A DNA stretch of 58,236 nt, taken from Promethearchaeia archaeon (GTDB lineage Archaea; Asgardarchaeota; Lokiarchaeia; Sigyniarchaeales; SOKP01). The stretch covers positions 1 through 58,236 of the forward strand of contig JAHQWH010000019.1 of assembly GCA_029856105.1 (NCBI GenBank), written 5' to 3'. The translations under genes and the position numbers were made by a program. The notes under the pieces were generated by a model. It ran no database searches. It saw nothing but the letters and a program-made list of their open reading frames with translations, and was not told where the DNA came from. Below are positions 49,006-56,708 of the stretch, piece after piece; the stretch's first letter is position 1; each line of letters opens with the position of its first letter.

Positions 49006-50121
49006 CTATCTTTTCTTCTTTAAAAAATGTCTATAGACAATTAAATAATTTTTTACAGATATCATTCTAGGATTACGCCTAAAACCTGATGGTATAACAG
49101 CACTACAACGTGAGCAGAGGTTTGAAGTTCGCATCCAATCTTTAAATTCATCAGCATGTGCGGGATATCTGCAATTTGGACATACAACAATTCCTCTGCC
49201 TCTATCTCCGGGAAGTTTTGGTAAATTAAAACAAAAGATACATTTGAAATCATCTACTGTAAGATATGATGCTTTTGGTTTATATTTATTTAGATCACGA
49301 ACTTTTGAAGTTGGTTTAACACGAGTAGTACGTGAAGTATTTGTTGTTCTAGTCCTTGCCGTTTGTTTATGTGATGTAGGGGTTGTTCTTGACGATTGGG
49401 TTCTAGATCTTGTTGTATGTGTAGTTGTCCTAGTTGATGGAGATGTATTAGTTGTGCGTGTTGTGCGTACTCTTTGTCTCTGGGTTGAAGGTGTGGTCAA
49501 ATTATTGATCCTTCTAGTACGGTCAGCAATGTAATCCCGAGTTAACGTTGGTATTGATGAACCAGTACTAGTAAATCCAAAAACAATTAATATTAAAACT
49601 ATAGCTATGAAAAGTAATAGGAGATTTAAGTCTAGTAGAGTAAAATTATAAAAAGTTATCCAATAAGCAATAATAAAAATAAGAACTGAGAACGATAGAA
49701 TATATCCCAATGTCCTTGCTTTTACTGATTTTTTTCCAAAATAGATTATATTATATTTCTTAAAACAACGATATAAAGAATATAAACCATACATTACGAA
49801 TGGAAAAGCAAAAATTAGACTCCAAAAACTAAAATACACGCCACTGATAAGACTCTCTCCCAATAGACCAGTAAAAGAGCCCCATATGGAGTAAAAAATC
49901 CCGATAAATAATGGAAGAACCACAAAAAATGCAGTATTATGTGGTGAATTAAACTCGCGGTGGTGCTTGATATTTTCAAAAATCCTTAAAATAAATATTA
50001 TCCATAATCCGATTAATAACCATGTAAAAAAAAAAGCTAAAGAATATGAGATTAAACCATGAATTAAGCCAATTATTAGAAAAATAATAGCTATTATCCT
50101 TAACACTTTTTTTTTAACCAT
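49006..50121 (-). CDS. Six-TM membrane protein with Thr/Arg-rich linker and C-terminal RING-like zinc finger (candidate E3 ligase)
   Basis: About six hydrophobic segments; CIFC...VVCPNCRYPAHADEFKDW...CSRC; last gene of the Ubl-E1-E2-JAB operon. Confidence 0.75.
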   Translation of the reverse strand: MVKKKVLRIIAIIFLIIGLIHGLISYSLAFFFTWLLIGLWIIFILRIFENIKHHREFNSPHNTAFFVVLPLFIGIFYSIWGSFTGLLGESLISGVYFSFWSLIFAFPFVMYGLYSLYRCFKKYNIIYFGKKSVKARTLGYILSFSVLIFIIAYWITFYNFTLLDLNLLLLFIAIVLILIVFGFTSTGSSIPTLTRDYIADRTRRINNLTTPSTQRQRVRTTRTTNTSPSTRTTTHTTRSRTQSSRTTPTSHKQTARTRTTNTSRTTRVKPTSKVRDLNKYKPKASYLTVDDFKCIFCFNLPKLPGDRGRGIVVCPNCRYPAHADEFKDWMRTSNLCSRCSAVIPSGFRRNPRMISVKNYLIVYRHFLKKKR

Positions 50122-50150: not shown

Positions 50151-50969
50151 TTATTCTTCATCATATTCTAAATAAACTGGTTTTCCTTCAATAATAGGAT
50201 TCATAAAATCTAAAATTTCTGGTAACATTCTCACATCTAAATGCCCCTTAATATCAAAGGGAATTGAAAACCATTTTTTTGTTTTAAAATTAGCACGATA
50301 AATTTCAAAACCTAAAGATTTCCCGTTAATCTGATATGGATCAATAACAAGCGCAATAGCCTTATCCCATAATTTTTGATATCTTGCTTGAGTTCCTAAG
50401 TCTTCTCGTGACATAAAACATCCATAGGAAGGATGAGAATGATACCATCCACAAATAAACTGATTATTTTTTTTAATATCCTTGAATGCTCTAACGTAAT
50501 TTCTATAATCTTTAATTTCAGCATATACTGCTGTACCATGCCCCATCGGATACGCATCTTCAACATGGAGAATTCCTTTTTTATTATCGTATTTTCCTGC
50601 AAGCAACCCTATTACTTCAACCCAATTCTCTCTTCGGATTTTAGAATGTGCATATTTTAATGAATGGCTAGAGATCTTAAGGATAGATTTTACAGTCAAA
50701 GATATTTCAACTTTATCATTTCTAGCTACAGTTTTTATTGTGTCCATAGGAATTGGTTCAAGTTTGGCTTTAATTTCTTCTGAATGCTTTAAAGGCTTTG
50801 CGTTAATAAGCTCAGTTGTTAATTCTTCTTGCAATTCTTCTAGTTGTAATTCGGTATATACTTCTTCAAGCAATTCCTTTTTAATTTTTTCCTTAATTTT
50901 CTGTTTTATTGAATCTCTGAGCGCTTTATCATCACTATTCATAATACATTCACCATTTATCTTTTGCAT
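50151..50969 (-). CDS. JAB1/MPN+ (JAMM) metalloprotease with N-terminal coiled coil (likely start ATG 50942)
   Basis: EVIGLL...GWYHSHPSYGCFMSREDLGTQ, ALVIDP; GGTGA RBS before 50942. Confidence 0.92.
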   Translation of the reverse strand: MQKINGECIMNSDDKALRDSIKQKIKEKIKKELLEEVYTELQLEELQEELTTELINAKPLKHSEEIKAKLEPIPMDTIKTVARNDKVEISLTVKSILKISSHSLKYAHSKIRRENWVEVIGLLAGKYDNKKGILHVEDAYPMGHGTAVYAEIKDYRNYVRAFKDIKKNNQFICGWYHSHPSYGCFMSREDLGTQARYQKLWDKAIALVIDPYQINGKSLGFEIYRANFKTKKWFSIPFDIKGHLDVRMLPEILDFMNPIIEGKPVYLEYDEE

Positions 50970-51477
50970 ATTTCTTTACAAGACTTTTTACTTTTTTATC
51001 AAAAAGCTTCGGATTTTTCATCATTTCTATTGCAGCTTTCTTATTAAAAACATCAGTGGGATTAACATACTTACCATGGGTGTTTAACATGGCAATTATT
51101 GCTTGAACAACAGTATTTGCTGTTTTTGAAGGACTCCATCCTCCTTTTTTACCCGTTAAAGAAGGATCTACTAAAGCTAAACAAATATTTCTCTGCCCTT
51201 TGTATTCACTTGGTTTTGCCCAAAAATTTGGATGCCAAATTGGAGTATGCAATCTTACGAAAGGAGGGCGCTTAGGATACTGAGCAGGGAATTTCATTTC
51301 CAACTTAAACAATCCACCTGCATAAGCTGTACCTTTAGGACCTTTAATTGTGATTGCTAAATGATCAATACTCTTTTTTTTCGAATTAAATGGTTTTAAT
51401 TGGATAATAGTACCTTCTTTAAGCAATCTTTTTAACCCCGCAAAATCTCTAGAAACACGACTGGTTCTTATACTCAT
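50950..51477 (-). CDS. Ubiquitin-conjugating enzyme E2
   Basis: GPKGTAYAGG, FPAQYPKRPP, HPN, catalytic ICL, WSP, NKKAA. Confidence 0.95.
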   Translation of the reverse strand: MSIRTSRVSRDFAGLKRLLKEGTIIQLKPFNSKKKSIDHLAITIKGPKGTAYAGGLFKLEMKFPAQYPKRPPFVRLHTPIWHPNFWAKPSEYKGQRNICLALVDPSLTGKKGGWSPSKTANTVVQAIIAMLNTHGKYVNPTDVFNKKAAIEMMKNPKLFDKKVKSLVKKYAKDKW

Positions 51478-51558: not shown

Positions 51559-52791
51559 TTATTTTAATTTTAAGGTAACGTAAATATCTCCACCCTTAAA
51601 CCCCACAACGGTCAGAAATTCGTAATTTCTTAATCCATTTTCGATTACACTTTGCTCTAAATCTAAAACCATGATGTCATTGAAATCCTGTAAGGTAATA
51701 ACTGGTTCAAATTCAGGTTCCAATTCAAATCCATTTTTTTGCAATGTTCTAATTATGTTCATGCAGGGTGATTGAGGTTTCATTTTTATAGCAATACGTC
51801 TTACGTTTTTACCACATTGAGAACATTCCGGATTTCTCTTCTTTTCAATATGATACAGTTTCATTGTCATTCCATTAAATATAACATAACTTGAAATGGG
51901 CCGTCCTAAACTCTTATGACCTCTTTTCCAATGCAAAATTTTCACAGCTTCATGTGATTCTAAAGCAGAAATAATAGCATTAATAGTAATGATCCCAGGA
52001 TCATGACGATCAATGATTTTAACTATATCATCAGAAGTATATTCAGGTAGGAAATTATGCTTATTCACTAATTCATTTGCGACTTTTTGGATAAATTCAA
52101 TATCTTTTATATTTTTTGGGTTCAGATCTCTATCAAATTTTTCTTTAAACGCCATATCTCCTTTAAAAACACAATGAATCCGTTTTCGGGGGATACCTAC
52201 CACTGTACAGGCTGCCATTTCATCACTTTCTCCTACTGGTAGTGGATTACATTCATAGCAAGCATTCCGATACGGAAAGATTGAATACATATGTCCGTGA
52301 TAACCAGATGTACCTCCATCCACTAATGGTTTTCTAAATCTTATACATTGCGCATTTAGGTTCAAACGAGCATTCATTGAATCAAGACCTCCAATAACAA
52401 CATCAGCCGCATGATATAAAGCAGGATCTAACCTTTCTAAGGAGGTATGATAACCTTTTACAGTAACATTGGGATTAATCTTGATTAGCTTATTAGCTGC
52501 CACAATAGCTTTTGGTTCTCCTAACTTTGCATCAACAAAAAGAAGTTGGCGATTCAAATTGGAATGCTCAATAATATCTAAATCAACAAGATCTAAATGG
52601 CCGACCCCTAACATGGCCAGGTTTTTACTAATTTCGCAACCTAACCCACCAATGCCTACAATTAACACTCTTGAGTTTTTTACCAAATTCTGAGACCATC
52701 CTTCCAAACGAAATTGGCGGTCATATAAATCTCTCTCTTCCGCTGTCATTCTTTTGGCAAAAAAATCTGATTCCTTATCCATTATTATCAC
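51559..52791 (-). CDS. Ubiquitin-like activating enzyme E1 (Uba2/Uba3-like; probable start ATG 52782)
   Basis: YDRQ, GIGGLG, DLDIIEHSNLNRQ, CYEC, catalytic ACTVVGIPRKRIHC, CSQC, plus a C-terminal extension. Confidence 0.92.
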   Translation of the reverse strand: MIIMDKESDFFAKRMTAEERDLYDRQFRLEGWSQNLVKNSRVLIVGIGGLGCEISKNLAMLGVGHLDLVDLDIIEHSNLNRQLLFVDAKLGEPKAIVAANKLIKINPNVTVKGYHTSLERLDPALYHAADVVIGGLDSMNARLNLNAQCIRFRKPLVDGGTSGYHGHMYSIFPYRNACYECNPLPVGESDEMAACTVVGIPRKRIHCVFKGDMAFKEKFDRDLNPKNIKDIEFIQKVANELVNKHNFLPEYTSDDIVKIIDRHDPGIITINAIISALESHEAVKILHWKRGHKSLGRPISSYVIFNGMTMKLYHIEKKRNPECSQCGKNVRRIAIKMKPQSPCMNIIRTLQKNGFELEPEFEPVITLQDFNDIMVLDLEQSVIENGLRNYEFLTVVGFKGGDIYVTLKLK

Positions 52792-52806
52792 TTTTAATAT
52801 TATTCG

Positions 52807-52840
52807 AAAAAATAAAAAAATTGAAGGGCTTAATGCCCTT
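52807..52840 (-). terminator. Hairpin plus U-tract between the Ubl and E1 genes
   Basis: AAGGGC-N5-GCCCTT (52824-52840), followed on the minus strand by CAATTTTTTTATTTTTT. Confidence 0.45.
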
Positions 52841-52866
52841 ATATTAAACTTTATGAAAAGAAATAT

Positions 52867-53199
52867 TTAAAAGTATCCCGCAGTACTTGCTGGGATCAAG
52901 AGAATGTCGTCGCCATCATTAACACCATAATCTTTTAATTGATTACCCTCATCCATAGTAACTCCTCCGGATGAGAGGTGAAATTCTTCAGGATCAAGTC
53001 CGTATAAATTTCCTAATGTTTGTTTGATGTCACTTACATTATTAGCGTCATTCACCGTTAATTTCTCCTTCTTTTCACCAGGACCAATAGTTGACATGAA
53101 GTATAGAGTCAACTTTCTGCCTGTTGAGGGTGTTTTACTTGATGGAGTCTTAGATTTAACTGGTTCTAATTCTTCATCAAAATCGTCTTCAAAACTCAT
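52867..53199 (-). CDS. Ubiquitin-like modifier 1 with acidic N-terminal tail, C-terminus ...PASTAG-YF
   Basis: Beta-grasp pattern (VSDIK...FHLSSGG.TMDE..QLKDYGVNDGDDILL); first gene of the E1-E2-JAB-RING operon. Confidence 0.88.
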   Translation of the reverse strand: MSFEDDFDEELEPVKSKTPSSKTPSTGRKLTLYFMSTIGPGEKKEKLTVNDANNVSDIKQTLGNLYGLDPEEFHLSSGGVTMDEGNQLKDYGVNDGDDILLIPASTAGYF

Positions 53200-53465
53200 T
53201 CAAATCACTTTATCTATTTTTTTAATTTTTTTTTTTAAGAATTTAATAATATGATGTAAAAATGATATTAAAAAACTAATTGGAATGATTTTGAAGTTTT
53301 ATTAATTTTAAAAAGTAAAAGAAATTATATATTAAATAGAGTTCCTAAGAAAATATATTTATAAATTGAATGACAATTTATTAATATTTATTGGTGAGAA
53401 TACTGTTTAGAAAGAAGATTTGATTAATAAATTCAGACTTTTTAACATAGTAAAAATTTAAGCTT

Positions 53466-54137
53466 ATGAGCTCTCCGGATAACCTTCAATCTATTGTGTG
53501 TGATTTAATAGGGGAATATTTGAAAAAGAAACCTTTCTTTTCAATAGAAGATATTGTTGTATTTATCAATAATAGATCAAAATCTAACCCTTATCTAAAT
53601 AAAAATAGTATTGAACTTATAATTAAAAATCTAATTAAAAAAAGAATTTTAATTCCTGGAACAAAATTAATGAAAAACAATATTATTGAACATCCTATAA
53701 GAAATGAAATTTATAATTTTATAAAGAAGAATCCATCAAATATTAATGAAATAATGAAAGCCATTAATATTGGAAGCAATCAAACATTATGGCATTTATC
53801 TTGCTTAGAAAAATTTAGATTTACTAGATCAAAAAAAATTGGTAATCAAAAAATAATCTTTGAATACGATTCAAATCCAGAATATGACATGTTATTTTTT
53901 TATTTAAAACGAAATATCGTTCAAGAAATAATTGATTTTATGATTAAAGAAAATAAAACATTAAAGGGTACTGAAATCTCAACTGGATTAAAAAAGAATT
54001 ATAATACGATAAAAAAGTATCTTGAAATATTAAAAAATCTGGATTTAGTAACAATCGAAAAAGAAAATAAAAAGGTTTCTTTTAAAATCAATACAGAGAA
54101 ATACTATAAAATAAGAGAATCACTTTTAGGTGAGTGA
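53466..54137 (+). CDS. Tandem winged-helix DNA-binding protein
   Basis: RNEIYNFIKKNP.NINEI...WHLSCLEKF, and a second HTH (TEIS..LKKNYNTIKKYL). Confidence 0.75.
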   Translation: MSSPDNLQSIVCDLIGEYLKKKPFFSIEDIVVFINNRSKSNPYLNKNSIELIIKNLIKKRILIPGTKLMKNNIIEHPIRNEIYNFIKKNPSNINEIMKAINIGSNQTLWHLSCLEKFRFTRSKKIGNQKIIFEYDSNPEYDMLFFYLKRNIVQEIIDFMIKENKTLKGTEISTGLKKNYNTIKKYLEILKNLDLVTIEKENKKVSFKINTEKYYKIRESLLGE

Positions 54138-54221
54138 GCATCAAAATTTCAAACTTATTCCAATGGGATTTATATTTTGAATTATACATTAGAAATTTGA
54201 ATAAAATTTATCATAAAAATC

Positions 54222-55010
54222 ATGAGGAAGAATTTTAGAGTCTTAAGTCTCATAACTCTTTACGTAGGGATAGCATTTGTCTATTTGATTCTTATCTTTT
54301 TACAAGTAGAAAATGTTCCAGTATATCTCTTTTTAACAATTGGCAGTGTTGCTGTGCTATCCACAAGCACTATCTACACAGTTGTTCAATCTAAAAGTAC
54401 CCCCATTGTGAAGATGAAAGATATTAAATCATTTCCCAAACAAAAACTGAGTAAGAAAAAAACTAGTGCTCTACTTGAGGATTACTTTGATGCAATGCCT
54501 TTAATAGATAAATATGCGAATGCGATGGAATCATTTGAAGAAATAGAATCGATGGATGATTATATTTTTACTATTTTTAGTAAAGAAGAAATAGCTAAAA
54601 TTGATCTCTTAGGATTATCAAAAATGGACAAAATATTTTTTATTAGGGAAATGTTGTATTTTAACGTTTACGAGAGAAAACAGTTAATTGAAGACATGTT
54701 AGAAAACAAGAGCCTAACTGAGGAACAAGTGATATACAACCCACCATTGCAAACTATTGGGATGGATGAGAAAGTACGTGTTTATATAAGGTCATTAATC
54801 GAACCAGGTGAGAAAACTAAGATTCTCATAATTGAAACATTTGAATTAGTAAGTGTCATTAAAGAAAAAGTTGGGATACTATTTGATTATAATCTAGAAG
54901 ATTTTCTATTATCATCTGGGGGGATTTTATTAGATGAAACTCTTCTAATAAAAGATTACGTTATTGACGATGATGACGAAATTGCGCTAATTCCATCAAG
55001 AAAAAAATAG
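54222..55010 (+). CDS. Two-TM membrane protein with C-terminal ubiquitin-like domain lacking the terminal Gly
   Basis: N-terminal TM hairpin. The last ~80 aa align with both Ubls (PGEK, F.LSSGG..DE, DY...D.D.I.LIP) but end in SRKK. Confidence 0.82.
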   Translation: MRKNFRVLSLITLYVGIAFVYLILIFLQVENVPVYLFLTIGSVAVLSTSTIYTVVQSKSTPIVKMKDIKSFPKQKLSKKKTSALLEDYFDAMPLIDKYANAMESFEEIESMDDYIFTIFSKEEIAKIDLLGLSKMDKIFFIREMLYFNVYERKQLIEDMLENKSLTEEQVIYNPPLQTIGMDEKVRVYIRSLIEPGEKTKILIIETFELVSVIKEKVGILFDYNLEDFLLSSGGILLDETLLIKDYVIDDDDEIALIPSRKK

Positions 55011-55062
55011 TAGTGAAAAAAGAAAATAATATTATTTAATTGTCTATATCTTTCCAATCTAT

Positions 55063-55461
55063 TCAACCAGCAACGCTAGCTGGAATTAATAATATATCAT
55101 CTCCATCAGACAAGTTATAATCACTTAACATCGAAATTTCATCCATAGTGACTCCCCCCGAAGATAAATGAAAGTCAGCAGGATCTAAAGCAAACAAATT
55201 TGCTACAGTATCTTTAATATCTCCTACTTTATTTCCAGTATATACCAGTAATTTTTGTTTTTTCTCACCAGGTCCTATGGTTGATAGAAAATACACAGAA
55301 ATCTTTTTTCCTTCATGTGAGATTTTTTCATCTGGAGTTTTAACTGTAAATTCTTCCGTGGGGGCCTTTTTAGAAGGCTCATCTAATTCTTCATCTAGAT
55401 CTTCGTCAAATTCCTCATCAAATTCCTCGTTAAAATCTTCCTCAAAATCCATTAGATACAC
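55063..55461 (-). CDS. Ubiquitin-like modifier 2 with very acidic N-terminal tail, mature C-terminus ...PASVAG
   Basis: Close paralog of 52867-53199 (STIGPGEKK, FHLSSGGVTMDE, DGDDILLIPAS). Confidence 0.88.
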   Translation of the reverse strand: MYLMDFEEDFNEEFDEEFDEDLDEELDEPSKKAPTEEFTVKTPDEKISHEGKKISVYFLSTIGPGEKKQKLLVYTGNKVGDIKDTVANLFALDPADFHLSSGGVTMDEISMLSDYNLSDGDDILLIPASVAG

Positions 55462-55625
55462 ACCATTAATTTAGAATTATAAATTTAATATTTCTTTTAT
55501 AGAAATAATGGAAATGATAATATATAAATCGACAACAAAAATTGTCTTAAAAGTAAATTGCAAACACTTTAGAGTGAAAAATTATATAATATACTTAAAA
55601 ATTTATATGAGTTTTTACAAGTACC

Positions 55626-56708
55626 ATGAATGATAAACACATTCCTAAATACCAAATTCGAGAAAAAACACCTGAAGAGCAATTAGATGTTATTTCGGAT
55701 GCGAAATTACTCAAAAAAATTAAGGAAGAAACAGCTAAATTGAACAAAGAGAAAAATGAATGGGAACAGGTTATTAAAAAATTTGAAGGATACCACGAAA
55801 ATATTGAAGATTTAGAAAAGAAAAGAAAAGAAAAAGAAGTTCAAGTGAGAGATTTACAAAATAAACATGAAAAATTAAGAAATGAATTAGAAGCTATGAG
55901 AAACGAAATAAAGCAAAGTAGAGAGAATCTAGATCAAAAAAATGCTAACTTAGAACGATATCAAGAGAAACTGCAAGGATTAAAAGATGAGATAGAGAGT
56001 GAGAAAAAATATTTAGAAAAAGATAAAGAAAGAATAAAAGATAGAATTAAAGAAATTAAAACTAAAATACCTGGTATGGAACGGAGAGAAAATGCGTTAG
56101 AGAGAACTGTTGAAAAGTTGGAAAACGCATTAATGGATTTAAGAAATGAAATCAAGAATTTATCGAGAGAAAGAGATAATCTAACCAAAGAAATCAATAG
56201 TTTGAGAAGAGAAATAATAGATGAAAAAAATCGATTTGAAGATGAGAAAAGAAAATTAAAAGATGAAAAAGAAAAAGTTCGCTATAAAAAAAAAGAGTTA
56301 AACCTTCAATCTCGTGAAGTTGATAAAAAAAAAGAAGGATTAGGCAAGTATAAAGAGAATGCAGATCGCGACGTAAGAGAATTAGAAAGAAAGAAAAAAG
56401 GGCAAGAAGCAAGATTAAAGGAATTAGATAGAAAAGTTCCTAAAGCAGAAGATACTTATTATTCTTTAGAACATAAAGTTCGTAATTTAGAGAATAAACT
56501 TAAAAACTTAAAAAATGAGTCTAGACAATTGGAAAAAGAAAAATCGATGATACAGAATGAAAAACAAGCAATTAGAAGAGAGAGAGAAAAATTAGAAAGT
56601 GACAAAAAGAGATTTCTTAGAGAAAAGCGAGATTTTGAAAGAGAGTTAAGAAAAATTAAAGAGATTCCAAAATATAAAATCAAATCAAAAACCCCTTCAA
56701 AATATTAA
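55626..56708 (+). CDS. Long coiled-coil protein with matching terminal motifs
   Basis: Continuous E/K/R/L heptads; N-terminal IPKYQIREKTP and C-terminal IPKYKIKSKTP. Confidence 0.8.
   Translation: MNDKHIPKYQIREKTPEEQLDVISDAKLLKKIKEETAKLNKEKNEWEQVIKKFEGYHENIEDLEKKRKEKEVQVRDLQNKHEKLRNELEAMRNEIKQSRENLDQKNANLERYQEKLQGLKDEIESEKKYLEKDKERIKDRIKEIKTKIPGMERRENALERTVEKLENALMDLRNEIKNLSRERDNLTKEINSLRREIIDEKNRFEDEKRKLKDEKEKVRYKKKELNLQSREVDKKKEGLGKYKENADRDVRELERKKKGQEARLKELDRKVPKAEDTYYSLEHKVRNLENKLKNLKNESRQLEKEKSMIQNEKQAIRREREKLESDKKRFLREKRDFERELRKIKEIPKYKIKSKTPSKY

Follow-up and report, generated by a model that had tools for sequence, protein, structure and literature searches.

A branch of the archaeal ubiquitin family that ends in Ala-Gly, with labile C-terminal extensions, in Loki-type Asgard archaea

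We analyzed a 58,236-nucleotide stretch of DNA (contig JAHQWH010000019.1 of assembly GCA_029856105.1, positions 1 to 58,236; hereafter the window) from a Promethearchaeia archaeon whose 3.66-Mb genome is 92% complete. The window encodes two ubiquitin-like (Ubl) proteins, Ubl1 and Ubl2, whose conserved end is Ala-Gly (AG) rather than Gly-Gly (GG). They are paralogous modifiers that form a lineage-specific branch of the archaeal ubiquitin system in Loki-type Asgard archaea, and as judged from the alignments the AG end is a fixed character of the family. Taken as a whole, the explanation that we consider probable is an AG-ended ubiquitin branch in which drift of the stop codon adds short C-terminal extensions and a JAMM metalloprotease encoded in the same operon trims them. 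Under this explanation, the need for trimming in Ubl1 but not in Ubl2 would be a passing state of each gene and not a conserved division of labor.

Ubl1 (52867..53199, minus strand) is a ubiquitin-family modifier of 110 aa and the first gene of an operon that continues with an activating enzyme (E1), a conjugating enzyme (E2), the JAMM protein and a RING-type protein. It is made up of an acidic tail (residues 1-12), a KSKTP/SKTP linker, a beta-grasp core (29-103), the segment IPASTAG (102-108) and a final, dispensable Tyr-Phe (YF, 109-110). Its paralog Ubl2 (55063..55452, minus strand) is 61-63% identical to it and forms a transcription unit of its own. Read directly from the DNA, Ubl1 ends in ...ILLIPASTAG-YF-stop, with Gly108 encoded by GGA at 52878-52876, YF by TAC-TTT at 52875-52870 and the TAA stop at 52869-52867, and Ubl2 ends in ...ILLIPASVAG with a TGA stop (55065-55063) immediately after. 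Both termini are as an earlier, sequence-only reading of the window had claimed, and the acidic runs quoted there (FEDDFDEE and DFEEDFNEEFDEEFDEDLDEELDE) are found in the two proteins. We assigned the start of Ubl2 to the ATG at 55452 and not to the GTG at 55461 because homologs begin MDFEE..., which gives a protein of 129 aa.

Ubl1 scores above the cut-off of Pfam model PF00240 (28.1 bits against 25.4), and Ubl2 alone falls below it (14.6 bits). An AlphaFold (AF2) model of Ubl1, built from an alignment of 51 sequences, has a beta-grasp fold in the order beta-beta-alpha-beta-beta-(helix)-beta, with a predicted local distance difference test (pLDDT) score of about 88 in the core and below 50 at residues 1-23 and 108-110. 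A Foldseek search with this model gave at least 500 matches to ubiquitin-like chains, the best being the ubiquitin of Caldiarchaeum subterraneum (6FNO/6FNN/6FJ7), followed by ISG15, ubiquitin, NEDD8 and SUMO. Four structures of a 'putative ubiquitin' that Ubl1 matches in sequence (8HM1, 8HM2, 8HM3 and 8YPT) were considered as Asgard proteins and set aside; they are ubiquitin homologs of Bacteroides fragilis.

The AG end is conserved throughout the homologs. Among the 120 best clusters at 90% identity for each paralog, 240 in all, the motif IP[AS]S[TVIS]AG is retained in 240/240 (120/120 of the Ubl1 type) and the residues after it vary, which places the Gly at the conserved end, as the sequence-only reading had held. 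An exhaustive HMMER search of representatives at 50% identity returned 24 family members, whose conjugatable units end AG in 25 cases and GG in none; the only representatives without AG belong to a membrane-anchored type ending IPSRK.... All 34 Ubl genes in the 20 loci that we retrieved for synteny, which come from six family-level groups, end in AG followed by 0-6 residues. The Gly-Gly end expected of the ubiquitin family is thus replaced by Ala-Gly in every conjugatable member sampled, a pattern of conservation that, on these sequences, is far beyond chance. The AG-Ubl family is present in 98 of 251 genomes sampled across the phylum, with matches concentrated in the six family-level groups, and the same search did not find it in two large family-level groups (0/59 and 0/19 genomes).

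By comparison with the AG end, what follows it is unstable. Extensions of 1-3 residues occur in 85 of the 120 Ubl1-type clusters (71%) in 26 variants, among them YF in 38 clusters, RLI in 10 and YI in 7, and the other 35 clusters end at AG. Among Ubl2-type clusters, 107/120 end at AG and 13 (11%) carry 1-9 extra residues. On a FastTree phylogeny of the 240 homolog cores, from which the extension had been removed beforehand, extensions appear or disappear at least 20 times (11 in the Ubl1 clade and 9 in the Ubl2 clade) and the paralog label changes once. Ten genomes of the two nearest genera show how freely the states combine: neither paralog is extended in six; Ubl1 alone is extended in the genome of the window (YF) and in one other (LN); and both are extended in two, with RLI on Ubl1 and KINRNI on Ubl2 in one and TFK and CYIERI, respectively, in the other. 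YF is not a conserved attribute of Ubl1.

The codons point to how the extensions arise. After the GGx codon of the terminal Gly, orthologs have either a stop (TAA, TAG or TGA) or one of the sense codons TAC, TTA, AGA, AAA and TGT, which lie one step from a stop; where the codon is a sense codon, translation continues to the next stop in an AT-rich 3' untranslated region (UTR) that can be aligned between orthologs. In 90 of the 98 extended clusters, the extension begins with an amino acid that a stop codon can yield by a single step. Judged by these codons, an extension is what the ribosome adds when it reads past a changed stop codon into the AT-rich 3' UTR. YF-bearing clusters range down to 81% pairwise identity with a strongly conserved core, so the extended state is not instantly lost. 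Since extended copies keep conserved cores, they appear to be functional genes, which implies a trimming activity.

The sequence-only reading had instead taken YF to be a regulatory lock, with Ubl1 released only by active JAMM and Ubl2 constitutively conjugatable. The part of this that stands is the state encoded in the genome of the window, together with the bias in frequency between the paralogs (85/120 against 13/120 extended); the retention of YF among clusters down to 81% identity and the co-transcription of Ubl1, but not Ubl2, with the JAMM gene also fit a lock. As a conserved arrangement, we consider it unlikely, given the 11 or more switches in the Ubl1 clade and the nine in the Ubl2 clade, the 6/10 genomes of the nearest genera in which both copies are born mature and the 2/10 in which both are extended, and the lack of constraint on extension sequences that derive from the UTR. 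The JAMM gene is itself co-transcribed with E1 and E2, which leaves the proposed lock no obvious independent control. Because the extension behaves as evolutionary noise, the distinction between a gated and a constitutive paralog is of lesser value; the real conserved differences between Ubl1 and Ubl2 are the separate transcription unit of Ubl2 and its much longer acidic tail.

For the trimming activity, the operon JAMM is the natural candidate, both as maturase and as deconjugase. The gene (50151..50969, minus strand; JAB, 1.6e-14) encodes an Rpn11-like JAMM/MPN+ metalloprotease, and the order Ubl-E1-E2-JAMM is kept in 20/20 loci. Its residues E118, H177, H179, S187 and D190 are invariant in 18 orthologs. 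In a modeled complex of JAMM (residues 88-272) with Ubl1 (25-110), the interaction prediction score from aligned errors (ipSAE) was 0.84 against 0.16 for the best control. Of 80 solved complexes, 58 attain this mark, as do 2 of 110 mismatched pairs. Contact agreement among the three runs was 100%, with a partner pLDDT of at least 88. Ubl1 residues 100-110 and a family-specific STIGPG loop (36-41) rest in the model on JAMM residues that include E118, H177, H179 and S187-D190, which may reflect likeness only because the complex of Caldiarchaeum Rpn11 with its ubiquitin (CsRpn11-CsUb) has already been solved. In Caldiarchaeum, the operon-encoded Rpn11 cleaves pro-ubiquitin exactly after GG (PMC6043591). 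The suggestion in the sequence-only reading that the JAMM is the likely maturase, made there by inference, gains support from the synteny, the invariant active site, the complex model and the tandem precursors described next.

Genes that encode Ubl units in tandem are rare, and two were identified. P0241 has three units head to tail, with junctions ...IPHSTAG|SEYMINE... and ...IPFSTAG|ADDDFEDF..., and is identical in the JGI and Logan assemblies; since its units are only 58-63% identical in DNA, it is not an artifact of repeat collapse. P0242 has two units, joined at STAG|acidic tail. Such genes would need a protease that cuts after AG. P0263, a candidate for a third tandem junction, was rejected: its open reading frame starts inside a Ubl unit, has an aberrant tail and lies on a 1.2-kb contig. 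We also rejected the fused di-Ubl genes that large open frames had suggested in family f23 genomes, where five loci, once translated, proved to hold two separate genes.

We propose that the reactive carboxyl is that of the invariant Gly of IPAS[T/V]AG, which would be adenylated and thioesterified by the adjacent Uba3-like E1, handed to the UBC E2 and ligated with the help of the membrane RING protein. Residues beyond this Gly would be a short propeptide without sequence constraint, which a mutated stop codon creates by letting the ribosome continue to the following stop of the AT-rich 3' UTR. The extension would be tolerated because the JAMM/Rpn11-like protease would cleave exactly after AG, much as CsRpn11 does after GG. 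Tandem poly-Ubl precursors would be separated into their units, and conjugates removed, by this activity too. Conjugation of the modifiers, cleavage by the operon JAMM and neutrality of the extension are the steps that we infer.

Several observations weigh against parts of this explanation. Pure neutrality does not explain why 71% of Ubl1-type but 11% of Ubl2-type clusters are extended, a comparison in which the clusters are phylogenetically non-independent. All contigs that carry the poly-Ubl genes P0241 and P0242 are short metagenome contigs of low coverage; when five genomes of the relevant family were translated directly, the two Ubl units proved to be separate genes. CsRpn11 processed a Gly77Ala mutant of the penultimate Gly, which resembles AG, much more slowly, and a Gly77Val mutant not at all (PMC6043591), so the JAMM described here would have to be adapted to Ala at that position. 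The genome also encodes four other JAB-domain proteins as possible alternative trimmers. These last two points favor an alternative in which the operon JAMM does not cut the extension: another protease would trim it, or the extended copies would be temporarily inactive alleles (decoys) that will later revert or decay. We judge this improbable, as extended copies have cores no less conserved than bare copies, the JAMM gene accompanies Ubl in all 20 loci, the JAMM active site is invariant, and the complex model, although similar to an already solved complex, places the AG-YF tail in the JAMM active site (0.84 against 0.16).

The AG-Ubl system is a ubiquitin branch with an unusual terminus and not a relative of UFM1 or ATG8, because the fold comes closest to that of Caldiarchaeum ubiquitin and the enzymes are a Uba3/Uba2-like E1 and a canonical UBC E2. 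The adenylation domain of the E1 (51559..52791, minus strand; ThiF, 4.2e-56) contains two CxxC pairs; the protein also has an inserted Cys segment and, at its C-terminus, a beta-grasp-like domain (332-409), and its C195 and C207, between the two CxxC pairs, are invariant. Its best sequence matches in the PDB are SAE2/Uba2, Uba1 and Uba3, with UBA5 (2.4e-13) and ATG7 (2.5e-9) far weaker, and the alignment to Uba3 covers residues 34-358. The AF2 model of the E1 (pLDDT 82.5) has UBA3 as its best fold match over 411 columns and a beta-rich C-terminal domain at 332-409. The canonical E1 layout of adenylation domain, inserted Cys segment and C-terminal ubiquitin-fold domain is therefore present in both sequence and model. 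The E2 (50950..51477, minus strand; UQ_con, 1.3e-26) belongs to the UBC fold and bears both the HPN motif and the catalytic Cys, in the sequence HPN...NICLAL. The last operon gene (49006..50121, minus strand) encodes a polytopic membrane protein with a C-terminal RING-like zinc domain, a candidate ligase (E3), and stands in the same place in 19/20 loci. Modifier, E1, E2, RING-type protein and JAMM are thus encoded together, as assigned with Pfam and with the same order in the 20 loci. Its transmembrane (TM) region is joined to the RING-like domain by a basic linker with an extremely high content of Thr and Arg, a charge opposite to that of the acidic Ubl tails.

Two other classes of modifier were weighed against this assignment. 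The Ubls could be sulfur carriers or non-covalent adaptors of the MoaD/ThiS/Urm1 kind, as the membership of the operon E1 in the ThiF/MoeB superfamily and one database record that calls a homolog 'molybdopterin converting factor small subunit' might suggest. We regard this as very improbable: the fixed partners of the Ubls in the operon are a UBC E2 that has a catalytic Cys, a RING-like protein and a JAMM, the E1 has a eukaryote-type Cys segment and a Uba3-like C-terminal domain, and none of the adjacent genes is a Moa or Thi gene. A UFM1-like or ATG8-like pathway, with a single-Gly modifier and a non-canonical E1, can draw on the one terminal Gly and two-residue propeptide of Ubl1 and on an IP-x4-G spacing like that of UFM1, but is refuted for practical purposes by the absence of any match to the Ufm1 Pfam model PF03671 in the 92%-complete genome at E<=1, by an E1 nearest to Uba2, Uba1 and Uba3 and not UBA5 or ATG7, by an E2 of the UQ_con family and not UFC1 or ATG3, and by fold neighbors that are Caldiarchaeum ubiquitin, ISG15, ubiquitin and NEDD8.

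UFM1 (VG-SC) and ATG8/ATG12 end in a single Gly, and UFM1 and ATG8 have a short propeptide. The likeness that the sequence-only reading saw to UFM1 and ATG8 extends no further than the single Gly; the family gives no sequence match to them, and its enzymes and fold are of the ubiquitin/NEDD8/SUMO kind, unlike the E1 and E2 classes that serve UFM1, ATG8 and ATG12. NEDD8 and SUMO have GG ends, are matured by cysteine proteases and use heterodimeric E1s. Their catalytic E1 subunits, Uba3 and Uba2, are nearest to the operon E1 by sequence and predicted fold, their modifiers are likewise made as precursors, and SUMO shares a disordered N-terminal tail containing lysines. The system described here differs from both in its AG end, its metalloprotease as candidate maturase and the lack of a partner E1 subunit gene in the operon.

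The closest known arrangement is the ubiquitin operon of Ca. Caldiarchaeum subterraneum, which encodes a pro-ubiquitin, an E1-like and an E2-like protein, a small RING protein and an Rpn11/JAMM (PMC5654768, PMC6043591). Both systems have modifier, E1, E2, RING-type protein and JAMM in one cluster and a modifier with a C-terminal extension that the operon JAMM would remove, and CsUb is the best structural match of Ubl1. The Ala-Gly end, the acidic disordered N-terminal tail with KSKTP and the polytopic membrane RING protein are peculiar to the operon in the window, as is a set of two free paralogs and one membrane-anchored copy without Gly; the extension is a fixed nonapeptide in Caldiarchaeum and an unstable 0-9 residues here. 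Asgard archaea (Hel/Heimdall/Loki) also have GG-type ubiquitin systems linked to ESCRT (PMC9192718; bioRxiv 10.1101/2023.07.25.550441), and a Helarchaeial pro-ubiquitin bears GG-SPKN (bioRxiv 10.1101/2023.07.25.550441). These share the phylum, the enzyme classes and a short pro-ubiquitin extension with the AG-Ubl family and differ in that their ubiquitins end GG. The searchable literature, with most subscription journals outside the searched set, held no description of an Ala-Gly or single-Gly Asgard ubiquitin.

A GG-type ubiquitin overlooked in the sequence-only reading is encoded in the same genome, on contig C12 (L004:1453-1707, plus strand). It has 84 aa, ends ...TQAGG-S, is 93-99% conserved across its family and occurs in 44 of the 54 genomes of that family; no E1 or E2 gene is adjacent. 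The genome therefore holds two coexisting, parallel systems. Further machinery comprises two more E2s, five more ThiF-type proteins and four more JAB proteins. On contig C48 there is an E1-like gene and a separate UBC E2, and on contig C85 a compact JAB/E1-like/E2-like cluster (L009, L010, L013, L014, L019), so that the genome has at least three E1/E2 sets.

To our knowledge, the eukaryotic modifiers served by canonical Uba1/2/3-type E1s and the archaeal ubiquitins studied so far all end in Gly-Gly. A large natural family with a fixed Ala-Gly and its own co-evolved E1, E2 and JAMM, beside a GG-type ubiquitin, is a ready-made experiment on what keeps Gly-Gly so conserved and how cross-talk is avoided between tagging systems that run in parallel, in a setting among the closest prokaryotic relatives of eukaryotes. 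We offer tentatively, as a joint reading that is possible but doubtful, that the AG end is an insulation code, a KTP motif in the N-terminal tails an acceptor consensus and the poly-Ubl gene a prokaryotic counterpart of polyubiquitin genes. A membrane-linked system with its own E1, E2, JAMM and RING protein would then be orthogonal to the coexisting GG-type ubiquitin, and modification of the lysine in [IV]KSKTP would build chains on the tails of the Ubls themselves, with a rod-like coiled-coil protein encoded next to Ubl2 as a built-in client. SUMO-2/3 builds chains on its own tails.

The tails of Ubl1 and Ubl2 are real conserved features, predicted to be disordered, and not low-complexity noise. 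Ubl1-type tails have a median of 27 residues before the core and an acidic fraction of 0.23, and Ubl2-type tails a median of 47 residues and an acidic fraction of 0.42. The acidic tail of Ubl2 is longer than that of Ubl1, with a net charge of about -16 across the first 55 residues. Within the acidic runs of the tails, every fourth residue tends to be Phe or Leu. Of the Ubl1-type tails, 119/119 contain a K[TV]P motif, as do 116/120 of the Ubl2 type. The coiled-coil protein (55626..56708, plus strand), which is divergent from Ubl2, has [IK]x[SE]KTP at both ends in 15 orthologs from several families (L022-L037); the KSKTP shared by the Ubl tails and this protein may be an acceptor-lysine or docking consensus. 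The sequence-only reading called the tails SUMO-like, which is apt as an analogy (disorder, lysines) and fails as homology: no sequence is shared, and Ubl1 reaches 20.8 bits against the Rad60-SLD/SUMO model PF11976, under its cut-off of 23.8.

A third Ubl paralog in the window, also overlooked before, is a protein with two TM segments and a C-terminal Ubl domain that ends LIPSRKK (TM-Ubl; 54222..55010, plus strand). The domain is about 41% identical to that of Ubl1, and since it lacks the terminal Gly, TM-Ubl could not be conjugated. Its gene is conserved in 10 loci beside that of a double winged-helix protein (53466..54137, plus strand; Pfam matches HrcA_DNA-bdg, HTH_5 and TrmB), and related representatives are P0327, P0350 and P0383. 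The double winged-helix gene lies between the Ubl1 and TM-Ubl genes, is syntenic in 10 loci and encodes a probable regulator. A GC hairpin followed by a T-run (52824..52840, minus strand) lies between Ubl1 and E1; it is the sole terminator-like site within 52700-55700, is retained in the centroid fold and may let modifier transcripts exceed those of the enzymes. In the deeper-branching families f23 and f15 (L039, L040, L041), tandem Ubl genes of the IPHSTAG and IPVSTAG types stand directly upstream of E1, a duplication independent of the Ubl1/Ubl2 pair of this genome.

AG-ended Ubl domains are also found at the C-terminus of larger proteins, namely a HerA-like ATPase, a CDC48_N+VWA protein and a Roadblock-like protein (metagenome representatives P0262, P0278 and P0246; L037:8072-9814, minus strand; L032:11770-12660, plus strand). 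Some fusion representatives may be chimeras of gene calling, such as P0243, a truncated F420 oxidoreductase joined to a Ubl. The 1395-aa protein P0380 contains an internal Ubl unit with the junction ...IPASTAG|APDQ. The larger proteins suggest that whole proteins are conjugatable through their AG end or are cleaved after it.

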